A stretch of 63,130 nucleotides of DNA, counting the filler, from Reclinomonas americana ATCC 50394 (taxonomy: Eukaryota), in NCBI GenBank assembly GCA_048213135.1. It is 5 parts of 3 records of this genome, joined end to end, with 100 filler letters (N's around TTAATTAATTAA, not from the genome) between each part and the next. Parts side by side here need not be neighbours in the genome. Positions count along the whole stretch, not along the records: positions 17,158 to 32,661 come from PS015265.1; positions 32,762 to 59,969 come from PS015265.1; 3 more parts are not named here. One strand, given 5' to 3'. The notes below the pieces were generated by a model. That model saw nothing but the letters and a program-made list of their open reading frames with translations, did no database searches and was not told the DNA's origin. A program made the position numbers and the translations under genes. Below, in pieces: positions 31,296 to 39,050 of this stretch. Each line of letters opens with the position of its first letter. Within the stretch, counting starts at the first letter, position 1.

Positions 31296-32215
31296 TGTAT
31301 CGTCGTCGTGTTCGGTTTTGTGAAAGGGGGGACATCCCAAGCTTGCAAGGCGGAATGATGAGCAGAGGAAGGTACACTCTCCCCTCACTGCATGCTCTCA
31401 CTCACTCTCCTTCTCACTCAGCTCATACTCCTCATCTGGCACCCCTCCGACCTCCCTCACCGACCACTCCTCTTCCTCCTCTGCTACTGCTCCTCCCTCT
31501 TCCTCCTCACATGGAGAGCAAGTCGAGGCCAAGGACGAGTGCCTAATGCGCCTATCAAAGGCCATGCTGGGTCCTTGCACGCGTGCTCAACCAACTTCGG
31601 AATATCGACGTGTTCGGTTTTGTGAGAGGACACCCCAACTCGCAAGAACGAAGGAATGATGAGCAGAGGAAGGTACACTGCACTGTCTCTCTCCTTCACG
31701 CACACCCCCACTCACTCACTCGCACTCTCTTTCTCACGCACAGCTCCTCCTCATCCTCGCGCATCCCACCAACCTCCCTCACTGACTCATCCTCCTCTGC
31801 TGCTGCTCCTCCCTCTTCCTCTGCTGCTGCCTCACATGGAGAGCAAGTCGAGGCCAAAGACGAGTGCCTTATGCGCCTATTAAAGACCATGCTAGGTCCT
31901 TGCACGCACAACAAAGCTTCGGAATATCGACGTGTTCGGTTTTGATGTAGAGGACACCCCAAGCTCGCGACACGGAATGATGAGCAGAGGAAGGTACACT
32001 GCACTGTCTCTCTCCTTCACGCACACCCTCACTCACTCACTCACTCTCCCTCTCACACAGCTCATCCTCATCCTCTCGCATCCCACCCACCTCCCTCACT
32101 GACCCATCCTCCTCTGCTGCTGCTCCACCCTCTTCCTCCTCACATGGAGAGCAAGTTGAGGCCAAAGACGAGTGCCTAATGCGCCTATTAAAGGCCATGC
32201 TGGGTCCTTGCACGC
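31296..32215 (+). repeat. Tandem triplication (about 310 bp) of the 5' end (upstream region, exon 1, intron, start of exon 2) of the HEPN-STAND-TPR gene
   Basis: GTGTTCGGTTTTG...ATGATGAGCAGAGGAAG|GTACACT...CATGGAGAGCAAGT...GGTCCTTGCACGC occurs three times; only the third copy continues into a long reading frame. Confidence 0.85.
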
Positions 32216-32538
32216 GTGCGTTGCAGTGCAAGCTGGAGCAGGTGCTTCCGAGGTTTCTGGAGGAGGCGCGTGAAAGCGATGGAGTGGTGCATGATGCGGA
32301 GTGGTGCAAGGCGCCGGGGGAGAGGGATAAGCGGTGAGTGAGTGAGGGAGAGGGAGAGAAGGGAGACAGGAGGGAAGAAATGGAGTGATTGAGTGAGTGA
32401 TTGAGTGTGCGAGTGAGAAAGGAGAGTGTGTGAGAGAGTGAGAGAGAAGAGAGAGAGAGAGAGGGAGACCGAGTGAGTGAGTGAAGGCGTTTGCTCGTGC
32501 TTCCTTTCCTTCTTTCTCACTCACTCACTCACTCATTC

Positions 32539-32576
<38 letters not shown>

Positions 32577-35900: not shown

Positions 35901-38900
35901 NNNNNNNNNNNNNNNNNNNNNNNNNNNNNNNNNNNNNNNNNNNNNNNNNNNNNNNNNNNNNNNNNNNNNNNNNNNNNNNNNNNNNNNNNNNNNNNNNNNN
36001 NNNNNNNNNNNNNNNNNNNNNNNNNNNNNNNNNNNNNNNNNNNNNNNNNNNNNNNNNNNNNNNNNNNNNNNNNNNNNNNNNNNNNNNNNNNNNNNNNNNN
36101 NNNNNNNNNNNNNNNNNNNNNNNNNNNNNNNNNNNNNNNNNNNNNNNNNNNNNNNNNNNNNNNNNNNNNNNNNNNNNNNNNNNNNNNNNNNNNNNNNNNN
36201 NNNNNNNNNNNNNNNNNNNNNNNNNNNNNNNNNNNNNNNNNNNNNNNNNNNNNNNNNNNNNNNNNNNNNNNNNNNNNNNNNNNNNNNNNNNNNNNNNNNN
36301 NNNNNNNNNNNNNNNNNNNNNNNNNNNNNNNNNNNNNNNNNNNNNNNNNNNNNNNNNNNNNNNNNNNNNNNNNNNNNNNNNNNNNNNNNNNNNNNNNNNN
36401 NNNNNNNNNNNNNNNNNNNNNNNNNNNNNNNNNNNNNNNNNNNNNNNNNNNNNNNNNNNNNNNNNNNNNNNNNNNNNNNNNNNNNNNNNNNNNNNNNNNN
36501 NNNNNNNNNNNNNNNNNNNNNNNNNNNNNNNNNNNNNNNNNNNNNNNNNNNNNNNNNNNNNNNNNNNNNNNNNNNNNNNNNNNNNNNNNNNNNNNNNNNN
36601 NNNNNNNNNNNNNNNNNNNNNNNNNNNNNNNNNNNNNNNNNNNNNNNNNNNNNNNNNNNNNNNNNNNNNNNNNGCACTCGTCTCCCCTCTCGTCTCCCCT
36701 CTCGCTCTCCCCCTCTCGCTCTCCCCCTCTCGCTGCTCCCCTTCCCCCGTCTCCCCCTTCACCTTTCACCCCACCCCCTTTCTCTTTCTTCTCCCTTCCC
36801 CTCTCACCCCCTTCCCCTTCTCACCCCTTTCCCCTCTTGCAGTGGATGACGAACTGATCACCCCCGTCGTGATCGTAACGAGCCGCCGCCAGACCCTCCC
36901 GGAAGAAGTGCGCGACTCCCTCGAGTTCGACGCGGTGGTGGAGTGTGTGCGCCTCGAAAACGTGGAGGACGACGACATTGTGCAACTCGTCAATCAGCGC
37001 CTCACCGACCAAGTGTCGCCGGAGGTGCGACGGCGCATCGTGCAGGCGCTGGAGCAAGGCCAGCACAGTGCACTCCGCGTCAGTGCGTGTCTCGGGTGAG
37101 TAATCCGTGTGCTTAAAAGCGTCGTTCATGTCACCTTCTTCTTCTTCTCCTTCTTTTCCACTGCTTCTTCTCCCTGTTTGCCCTCCTCTTCCTCCCTTCT
37201 CCATATACTCCCCACTCATTTCCCTCTTCGACAGCTGGCTCCTCTCGAGTCCACTGGAGGAACTGTATGGCGCGCGACTCGAGGAGATGCTGGCGGGCAT
37301 CGGCAACGACGCACTCTCTCAACTGCTCGAGCGCAACGTCAAGTCGCAGAGCGCGGCCGCACGACGCCTGCTCGTCTTCATCACCGCCTGCAAGCAGCTG
37401 GGCCTGACCGTCACGCCCGCGCTGGTGCACGTGGCCACTGGCGTGCTGCGTGTGGTGCCCGACTTTACCGATGTGCAAGGGCGGTTGGAGGGTGTGGAGG
37501 ACGCGGGCGCGAGGCTGTTGGAGATTGGCGAGTGTGCACGACGACTGCGACTGCATCAACTGGCTCAGGCGAGGCGACAGCGTGCGCCCGACGTCATTGG
37601 CGCACAGCAGCGACTCGACGAGATGACGCCGGAGGAGGAGAGGGAGGTGCGCCGCCGCGTGGAGGACATTGTCAATGGTGGCGGTGCGCGGGAGACCACC
37701 ATCAATCTGCGTGCGCTGTGCGACGCCAACTTGGTGACCATTGCGGCCTCGGCGAGCACTAACAGCGTGGCGCGAGTGTTGGCGGGCGAGGAGTTTGTGC
37801 GGCAGGTCGATCGCGGCGTCGAATACCGCGTGCACGACGAGATCTCGCACTGGCTCACGGAGGTGGCCGACGGCGGCCGCGATGCCGTGCAACGCACACA
37901 GCAGTACCTGGTGCGCCTGGCGTGCAGCGTGCTGCTGACCATCGACACGGAGAACGACACGGACACGATTCTGGTCGTGTCGCGCGACATTCTCGGTCTG
38001 CTGCAGACTGCGTGGACGCGCTTGTGCGACGACGATGCACTGCTGTGGATTGGCATTGGTCGGCACACCGAGGAGCTGCAGTGTGCGGCACTCGAGTGCA
38101 TGGCGCGCCTGATTGCCACGGTGCGAGTCGCGTCACTCGGCTTCAGCTCCGACAATGTGCCGCTGCTGATCTCCCGATTAACCGGTGAGCGAGATGACGA
38201 CGACGGCGACGGCGGCGACCGGCTGCACATTCGGCGTCTGCGCTGCCTCGGATGGTTGTACCACCTGATTGGCTGCTGGGAGGATCGCGATGAGGCCTGG
38301 CAGCGCGCGTGGGACGCGAGTCAGCAGGCCGACTGGTGGGGCTCGCCGGCGTCGGTGGTGGAGACGATCGAGTCGATGCGCTGTTGGATGCGGAGGACGT
38401 TTTTCGCCGACGACTGCGACTCCATGGCGGAGTGCCAGACGCTGCAGTGTGAGTTCCTCGGCGCCTCCCACCCCGACACGCTGTGGACGATGTTTTGGCG
38501 CGCCAAGGTCGATGCGCGTGCCAAGAAATTCGACACGGCCGAGACGCTCCACCGCCAGTGCCTGGAGAAGCGGCGACGCGTGCTCGGCGACGAGCACGGC
38601 GACACACTGGTGTCGCTGAACGAGGTCGCACTGTGCATCGAGGATCAGGAGCGCTCCGAGGAGCGTGTGACGCTGGACCGCGAGTGCTTTGAGGTGCGCC
38701 GACGCGTGCTCGGCGATCGCCACCCCGAAACCCTCTTCTCGATGAACAACCTGGCGTTCTCGCTCTCGCGGCACGGCACCATTGAGGCGCTGTGCGAGGC
38801 CAGCGAGCTGTACCGCGAGTGTCTGCAGGCGCGCCGCGAGACGCTGGGCGAGTGGCACGCCGAGTCGCAGACGACGTTTTTCAATTACATTCACTTTTTG

Positions 38901-39050
38901 AATGACCAGACGGAGTATGGCGAGTCCGAGCGGTTGCTGGCGGAGGCGGTGACGAGGGCGCGGGCGCAGCTGGGTGAGGGGCATGAGGATACGCAAAAGG
39001 CGATGGCGTGGTTGAAGAGGTGTCAGATGAGGCACAAGGGGAAGGAATGA
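31977..39050 (+). CDS. NLR-like protein: N-terminal DZIP3-like HEPN, STAND/NB-ARC-like NTPase, C-terminal TPR repeats
   Basis: HEPN-like FDATLCCSILL and SAIDRLRELRNKIVH (33805-33822); Walker A VTGAGGSGKS; Walker B LLLLDNV; VVIVTSR; GQHSALRVSA; TPRs such as RRRVLGDEHGDTLVSLNEVA and RRRVLGDRHPETLFSMNNLA. Exons at 31977-32333 join in phase (cg|c) across the linker to exon 33412. Confidence 0.8.

Follow-up and report, generated by a model that had tools for sequence, protein, structure and literature searches.

The window analyzed here is a 63,130-nucleotide stretch of Reclinomonas americana ATCC 50394 DNA (assembly GCA_048213135.1), filler between its parts included, and the gene of interest occupies positions 33419-39050 on the + strand. 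On balance, we read this locus as a eukaryotic gene that is intact and rich in introns and encodes a three-part protein of ~1026 amino acids (aa) that resembles nucleotide-binding oligomerization domain-like receptors (NLRs) and belongs to the STAND class (ATPases of signal transduction that have numerous domains), with a HEPN-type head, an NB-ARC nucleoside triphosphatase (NTPase) and tetratricopeptide repeats (TPRs). The first part is predicted to be an all-helical N-terminal domain of ~155 aa that would carry a HEPN-type RNxxxH catalytic helix. The second appears to be an NB-ARC-like NTPase with a Walker A motif, a Walker B motif of the hhhhDN form and a TSR sensor-1, and the third a putative helical arm with kinesin-light-chain-type TPRs at its end.

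The window itself provides an eight-exon gene model in which all of these motifs are present, similarity of the product to NB-ARC-like NTPases and to TPRs, and a local similarity of the motif-bearing helix to the Swt1-like and Abi_2 families of HEPN proteins. Profiles of NB-ARC proteins scored 25-26 bits on the spliced protein and the families TPR_10 and TPR_12 exceeded their Pfam cut-offs, so the proposal of the first-pass annotation that this is a multi-exon gene for an NB-ARC-type STAND NTPase bearing TPRs of the kinesin-light-chain kind holds. The strings it had quoted (FDATLCCSILL, the RNxxxH stretch, GAGGSGKS, LLLLDN, VIVTSR and the TPRs) were all located in the window.

Gene model and predicted splicing

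The window DNA is eukaryotic, with a G+C content of ~55%, many N gaps and CT/CA microsatellites. The gene was modeled as a single + strand unit of eight exons and seven introns whose joined frame is open over 1026 aa and ends in a stop at 39048-39050. All introns (7/7) are GT-AG, and five donors read GTGAG[TC]. Its features are listed below, with a slash marking each splice boundary.

33419-33607, +: exon 1, aa 1-63; start context caccgccATG; contains FDATLCCSILL at 33512-33544; donor ATG/GTGAGT at 33608
33773-74: AG acceptor between intron 1 and exon 2, supplied by an in-frame TAG; phase 0 join with exon 1
33775-33945, +: exon 2, aa 64-120; begins RSAIDRLRELRNKIVHD; RNxxxH at 33805-33822; GT donor at 33946 (model A)
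33784-33822: IDRLRELRNKIVH in exon 2, its RNKIVH at 33805-33822
33946-34516, +: intron 2, 571 nt; weak donor GAG/GTGCTG
34517-34628, +: exon 3, aa 121-157; charged helix VLAELRRHEEVIEIRHRHHEAKLDEFIESLRAASLSP; end of the N-terminal domain or linker
34694-34843, +: exon 4, aa 158-207; Pro/Ala-rich linker, then lead-in to the NTPase
34907-35070, +: exon 5, aa 208-262; Walker A VVVVVTGAGGSGKS, with GAGGSGKS at 34936-34959
35224-35446, +: exon 6, aa 263-336; Walker B LLLLDN at 35392-35409
35447-36842, +: intron 6, enclosing an assembly gap of 872 N at 35802-36673
36843-37095, +: exon 7, aa 337-420; sensor-1-type VIVTSR at 36869-36886; helical ARC1-like part
37235-39050, +: exon 8, aa 421-1026 and stop; putative winged helix, helical middle, TPR_10/TPR_12 at ~38241-39011

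Codon usage and base composition are both consistent with this arrangement. A codon-usage log-odds model trained on exon 8 and applied to the seven other exons in all frames gave the proposed frame the highest score in every one (7/7), including exon 1 (0.24 in the model frame versus -0.76 and -0.41) and exon 2 (0.37 versus -0.21 and -0.75). The exons are also richer in G+C (0.59-0.67) than the introns (0.48-0.56). The eight-exon splicing is predicted, and is well supported by this sequence logic. The first-pass annotation had made its HEPN proposal depend on the exon at 33775 being joined in the proposed frame, and such splicing is indeed predicted: there is an AG acceptor, the join is in phase 0, and codon usage is best in that frame. 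Its placement of the gene start at 31977, in contrast, was ~1.4 kb too far upstream. The coding sequence begins at 33419, and no coding part of the gene was found in 31977-33418, where a tandem repeat, CT-rich low-complexity sequence and two N gaps are located. A tblastn search with the spliced model for a paralogue within the window returned the gene itself only.

Some observations weigh against the model. Every splice junction of the eight-exon structure rests on sequence prediction, a consensus GTGAGT donor at 33977 lies 31 nt past the model A donor and its use would cause a frameshift, and the N gap in intron 6 might conceal sequence. It could be, then, that the model is wrong or the gene dead, either because the 33977 donor is used (with a stop after ~155 aa), because an exon is hidden in the gap, or because the gene is not expressed. 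The weakness of the model A donor (GAG/GTGCTG) beside a consensus site, the 872 N within intron 6, and the fact that expression and splicing are predicted only would all agree with such a reading, but we consider it improbable. Donor 33946 is preferred over 33977 because only 33946 keeps the frame of exon 3, which is fixed by the exon 4 junction. Moreover, the 10-nt direct repeat AGGTGCTGGC, which contains AG/GT, occurs at both ends of intron 2 (33944-33953 and 34515-34524) and fits a GT...AG intron bounded exactly at 33946-34516. A missing exon in the 872-N gap is unlikely because phase and the NB-ARC alignment continue across it; that alignment is collinear over exons 5-7 and the gap, with no motif missing. 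The 1026-aa frame, finally, stays open from exon 1 to exon 8, and no exon has better codon usage in another frame.

Variants of the exon 2 boundary were also considered. An extra exon within intron 2, or a donor at 33977, was rejected, as no AG acceptor restores the exon 3 frame. In a second version of the exon 2 boundary (model B), a GA donor at 33979 adds 11 aa, and the motifs are untouched in models A and B alike. Intron 2 contains an internal duplication of ~120 nt, with copies spaced 198 nt, and it looks as though the intron was created or enlarged by duplication. Intron 4 (34844-34906) is 63 nt long, keeps the reading frame and contains no stop, so that the protein would stay unbroken if it were retained, with 21 aa gained immediately ahead of the P-loop strand.

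The N-terminal domain and its HEPN-like helix

HEPN domains are metal-independent endoribonucleases with an Rx4-6H motif, in which the arginine is typically followed by N, H, D or Q, and they fold as an all-alpha four-helix up-down bundle that bears the motif on its last core helix. RNKIVH at aa 74-79 (R74, N75, H79) is the sole RNxxxH in the protein, and its R, N and H are all intact. When the first 160 aa were shuffled 20,000 times, this specific pattern arose in 1.3% of cases, and when the whole protein was shuffled 5,000 times it arose in 6.1%, whereas the loose Rx4-6H was present in 96.6% of shuffles and is uninformative by itself.

For three HEPN families, profiles were made from bacterial sequences (PF18731, n = 25; PF07751, n = 31; PF05168, n = 28) and run on the spliced N-terminus. 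The HEPN_Swt1 (PF18731) profile scored 10.6 bits and laid its catalytic helix, the segment 'ktlgh.eerslvseLrdvRnrwAHn', on aa 56-80 (KLIPAVDM/RSAIDRLRELRNKIVHD), spanning the junction of exons 1 and 2. None of 2000 shuffles reached this score (maximum 7.3), only 3/2000 did so when RNKIVH was held fixed, and the best score of the same profile on 246,544 residues of unrelated, helical real proteins was 1.7 bits. An hhalign comparison of HEPN_Swt1 with the N-terminus gave P = 9e-4 and a probability of 23%. The Abi_2 (PF07751) profile laid its catalytic helix on aa 61-80, with 4.9 bits for the whole sequence (reached by 4/2000 shuffles) and 2.5 bits for the helix alone. Control profiles for NB-ARC and NACHT were not significant on the N-terminus, their scores being reached by 177/2000 and 1020/2000 shuffles. 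Because the profile matches outdo shuffles, the residues around RNKIVH, and not just the motif, appear to be of the kind seen in the 'RN..AH' helix of Swt1/Abi2. That the N-terminal helix resembles the catalytic helix of two HEPN families more than shuffles do is thus partly supported, and we think it somewhat more likely than not that the N-terminus is a real HEPN domain.

The earlier proposal of a HEPN N-terminus is partly supported, by the motif helix, which matches the Swt1-like and Abi_2 profiles over ~25 residues. The same annotation had spread the HEPN domain over three exons; the motifs are indeed split between exons 1 and 2, but exon 3 adds just a C-terminal helix and linker.

A number of results count against a HEPN domain. 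The similarity is confined to ~25 residues round the motif, with no detectable similarity of the remaining N-terminal domain to the bacterial HEPN families profiled, and the hhalign alignment extends across the flanking helices without confidence, its probability being just 23%. The PF05168 profile (MNT-associated HEPN) does not match the N-terminus at all (-0.8 bits, a score that 589/2000 shuffles reach). Scanned singly, exons 1 and 2 matched no family in Pfam, PADLOC or NCBIfam at E <= 10, in scans whose filters drop most matches above ~0.1 and in which half-domains score low. Nor did sequence searches provide a relative. When exon 2 was compared by phmmer with 1.84 billion representatives, six matches were returned, which were summed short repeats over exon aa 17-61 and left the motif uncovered in all cases; none of 573 candidates was homologous when exon 2 was compared with longer proteins, and a metagenome contig scan with exon 2 found no homologue. 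Exon 2 had no usable match in the Atlas, and PDB sequence searches with exons 1 and 2 found nothing. The DZIP3/hRUL138-like HEPN family (PF18738; Pfam cut-off 27 bits, 144 positions) had no match on exons 1 and 2 scanned singly (E <= 10), and its members numbered 0 in three genomes (0/3) and 0 in the controls (0/14). In its FDxTL stretch, the N-terminus may resemble the DZIP3-HEPN family.

Alternatively, the N-terminal 155 aa may serve as an adaptor or executioner domain of helical or coiled-coil build that has no catalytic role, such as a coiled coil or four-helix bundle, in which RNxxxH would be fortuitous or a relic. The empty family scans and homology searches of exons 1 and 2, a profile similarity of one helix with a 23% hhalign probability, and the failure of PF05168 to match all speak for this reading. 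Furthermore, with its many R, L, E and H residues the domain easily produces helical, R-rich matches, as the 96.6% of shuffles with Rx4-6H illustrate. Even so, we regard a non-catalytic N-terminus as less likely: few shuffles (1.3%) contain RNxxxH itself, its context fits two HEPN helices (3/2000 motif-fixed shuffles for Swt1, 4/2000 shuffles for Abi_2), 246,544 residues of helical real proteins stay at or below 1.7 bits, and known HEPN effectors sit at the N-termini of STAND proteins.

NTPase, central region and TPR arm

The second part of the protein contains the expected nucleotide-binding motifs in order. GAGGSGKS conforms to the Walker A pattern GxxxxGK[ST], and Walker B LLLLDN (aa 319-324) and sensor-1 VIVTSR (aa 346-351) conform to the pattern hhhhD[DN], 20-30 aa, hhhT[ST]R. 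Since single exons are too short for Pfam, profiles were built and run on the spliced protein. A profile of five bacterial NB-ARC-TPR proteins scored 26.1 bits over aa 181-430 (0/2000 shuffles, maximum 9.1), and a PF00931 profile of 30 members from actinobacterial genomes scored 25.0 bits (0/2000 shuffles, maximum 8.5). The NB-ARC profiles aligned the P-loop, LLLLDN and VIVTSR in order across three exons and the N gap, and LLLLDN and VIVTSR fell on LlvLDN and VliTSR of the bacterial profiles.

In NACHT domains, Walker B is longer and carries additional acidic residues (DGxDE). The Walker B here is LLLLDNVGTLEQ, and a NACHT profile (24 members, one locus left out) scored lower, at 15.7 bits (0/2000 shuffles, maximum 11.2), with Walker B misaligned. 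As judged from these motifs and profiles, the NTPase is NB-ARC-like and closer to NB-ARC than to NACHT.

Some comparisons favor this assignment less. Pfam NB-ARC on exon 5 alone gave E 0.14 and 11.8 bits versus a cut-off of 23.5, and a narrow FxSxx profile (76 sequences) scored just 13.3 bits on the NTPase, a value that is uncalibrated. Candidates for the ARC1 GLPL-type motif and the MHD-type histidine of the winged helix are SALRVSACLG (aa 412-421) and RLRLHQLAQ (aa 524-532; 37542-37568); the alignment to 'vqvHrvvaa' is collinear but not significant (-0.9 bits). In Pfam, exon 5 matched generic P-loop families alone, all below cut-off, and exons 6 and 7 and the first 405 aa of exon 8 had nothing relevant. 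Exon 7 matched one designed repeat protein only in the PDB, via summed repeats.

In Pfam, the C-terminal part of exon 8 matched TPR_12 (1.9e-16; 60.5 bits versus a cut-off of 30.1) and TPR_10 (2.5e-15; 56.4 bits versus 27.5), each over four stretches, and the TPR part matched NCBIfam FxSxx_TPR at 7.7e-23 and 80.9 bits versus a cut-off of 300. A search with the whole of exon 8 gave 181 matches, all via the TPR part; coverage of the query was 23-52% in the 120 matches that were listed. A genome contig search with the TPR part found none. The preceding region is without relatives: exon 8 residues 1-400 had no homologue, and for the ~400 aa between NTPase and TPRs the protein and metagenome contig searches found no sequence relatives. 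In the Atlas, this central region fell among TPR-like clusters only, on language-model features. A single-sequence AlphaFold2 model of exon 8 had a predicted local distance difference test score (pLDDT) of 40.8, too poor for a fold search. Pfam scans of the exons detected no DNA-binding or other output domain elsewhere in the protein.

Relationship to known systems and possible function

HEPN-STAND proteins with TPRs or leucine-rich repeats (LRRs) are documented in animals and bacteria, so the architecture predicted here is of a known kind. In excerpts of PMC3710099, animals are listed as having the DZIP3/hRUL138 HEPN domain in fusions with TPR, NACHT and LRR, and the family is given as expanded in Nematostella, oyster and Capsaspora. 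Bacterial HEPN domains of the Swt1/Abi2 clade are fused to a STAND ATPase and TPRs, e.g., in Npun_F6454, MED222_16016 and Desac_1927 (Anantharaman et al. 2013, PMC3710099 Table 1). HEPN-NACHT proteins are described as abundant in cnidarians and bivalves in excerpts of PMC8260672 and PMC9646362, the latter of which gives Rx4H with N after R as the commonest motif and notes the occurrence of TPR C-termini. The background offered in the first-pass annotation, that DZIP3-like HEPN occurs in animal NLR-like proteins, agrees with what these excerpts state (PMC3710099, PMC8260672, PMC9646362). The layout of a nucleotide-binding site followed by TPRs is said to be ancestral in an excerpt of a fungal NLR survey (PMC9815663), whose main text mentions HEPN 0 times. 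A full-text literature search for HEPN with NB-ARC, TPR and NLR returned work on bacterial NACHT only, and one for HEPN, NLR and algae returned nothing relevant.

The animal DZIP3-HEPN NLR-like proteins (PF18738, NACHT and LRR, TPR or WD40) share with this gene the order of head, STAND NTPase and repeat sensor, an intron-containing eukaryotic gene and, in the excerpts cited above, an Rx4H with N after R and TPR C-termini. They differ in the NTPase, which here appears to be NB-ARC (25.0 bits) rather than NACHT (15.7 bits), and in the head, as the exons scanned singly lack a PF18738 match and phmmer with exon 2 found no homologue among the 1.84 billion representatives. The bacterial HEPN-STAND-TPR proteins have the same three-part architecture, and the catalytic helix here matches the Swt1-like and Abi_2 profiles. 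Unlike them, the gene here is eukaryotic with seven predicted spliceosomal introns, and its HEPN similarity to bacterial profiles amounts to one helix; the comparison with Npun_F6454, MED222_16016 and Desac_1927 is by published description. The NTPase and TPRs are most like those of bacterial NB-ARC-TPR proteins, with which they share a Walker B of the form LLvLDN and repeats of the form RRRVLGxDHPDTL. NB-ARC-TPR NLRs of fungi and bacteria, the actinomycete FxSxx-COOH TPR proteins among them, likewise combine an NB-ARC-like NTPase with TPR_10/TPR_12, but the FxSxx-COOH match (80.9 bits) is far under the 300-bit cut-off and the N-terminal domain is different. What appears particular to the R. 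americana gene is an NB-ARC-type NTPase in a eukaryote, a bacterial flavor of all three parts, and no detectable relative.

It is conceivable, though unlikely, that these features reflect acquisition by a protist or algal lineage of a bacterial antiviral-type HEPN-NB-ARC-TPR cassette, with a Swt1/Abi2-like head, an LLvLDN NB-ARC and FxSxx-like TPRs. In such a history, the gene would have gained seven introns, one of them still bordered by its 10-nt duplication, and diverged so strongly that no relative is detectable among billions of proteins.

Some HEPN ribonucleases, among them RNase L, Ire1, Csm6 and Cas13, act only as dimers, and in RNase L and Ire1 it is induced dimerization that forms the HEPN active site. 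If the N-terminus has a whole HEPN fold and ribonuclease activity, as the motif helix suggests it may, the protein could work on a similar principle. By analogy with other STAND proteins, a ligand on the TPR arm would lift autoinhibition, and the NTPase would then swap ADP for ATP and oligomerize. The N-terminal domains would thereby be paired, and by analogy with dimer-dependent HEPN ribonucleases their R/H helices would build a composite active site. RNA cleavage may in turn lead to cell arrest or death, or to destruction of invader RNA. Both the trigger and the outcome in this scheme are predicted from related systems. The likeness to RNase L and Ire1 is in this proposed principle of ligand-driven self-association that pairs two HEPN domains: theirs is a kinase or pseudokinase dimer with a C-terminal HEPN, and there is no sequence similarity here. 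Their KEN domain is assigned to HEPN in an excerpt of PMC3710099.

Alternatively, the protein may take no part in immunity or cell death and act as a regulator or scaffold, in the manner of the MalT- or AfsR-type regulators among bacterial STAND proteins, with an N-terminus that binds RNA or protein and does not cleave. STAND-TPR proteins include non-immune regulators, according to excerpts of PMC4381067 and 10.64898/2026.09.02.748808, and non-catalytic HEPN domains have been described by Anantharaman et al. (PMC3710099, in excerpt); function, moreover, is read here from sequence alone. We nevertheless find a non-immune regulator improbable, given that the motif retains its R, N and H and that Pfam scans of the exons revealed no DNA-binding or other output domain elsewhere. 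Less forcefully, neighboring tandem genes that encode ankyrin repeats and kinase domains fit a variable, possibly defense-related region.

Those genes are three tandem copies on the - strand at 48653-59679, in which a protein kinase domain and a Q-rich coiled coil accompany the ankyrin repeats (Ank_2 up to 4.3e-21), and a further kinase fragment lies at 45462-46866. The neighbor on the upstream side (25285-31186, + strand) encodes a succinate dehydrogenase/fumarate reductase flavoprotein in several exons, with matches to FAD_binding_2 (3.3e-29 and 5e-20) and Succ_DH_flav_C (1.6e-46). Just upstream of the putative HEPN-STAND gene is a tandem repeat at 31397-32215 (2.6 copies, period ~322 bp, 83-84% matches). 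On the downstream side, the beginning of the next gene is present twice, in a 96-nt direct repeat with 88% identity (39222-39317 and 39517-39612): an exon starts in the second copy (ATG 39566), and the first stops after five codons. Read by eye, the exon from ATG 39566 may resemble the N-terminus of a fumarylacetoacetase; an open reading frame with an FAA_hydrolase match lies downstream of the repeat at 42785-43228. Another, on the - strand at 40124-40576, has a borderline match to a fungal tRNA ligase phosphodiesterase domain (23.3 bits versus a cut-off of 23).

In our preferred reading as a HEPN-headed NLR-like protein, this gene would be one divergent member of a known architecture, with its function predicted from that kinship. 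It also illustrates how an effector domain can escape annotation based on open reading frames when it is cut by introns. The HEPN-armed STAND receptors so far described have NACHT domains in animals and STAND-TPR architectures in bacteria; if the head is an active HEPN ribonuclease, the R. americana gene would add a eukaryotic NB-ARC-type case to them. If uptake of a bacterial-type cassette were also true, it would represent an orphan eukaryotic ribonuclease-armed immune receptor outside animals. An active head would also favor the idea that NLR-like switches have, from early on and repeatedly, used RNA-cleaving effectors as their output.

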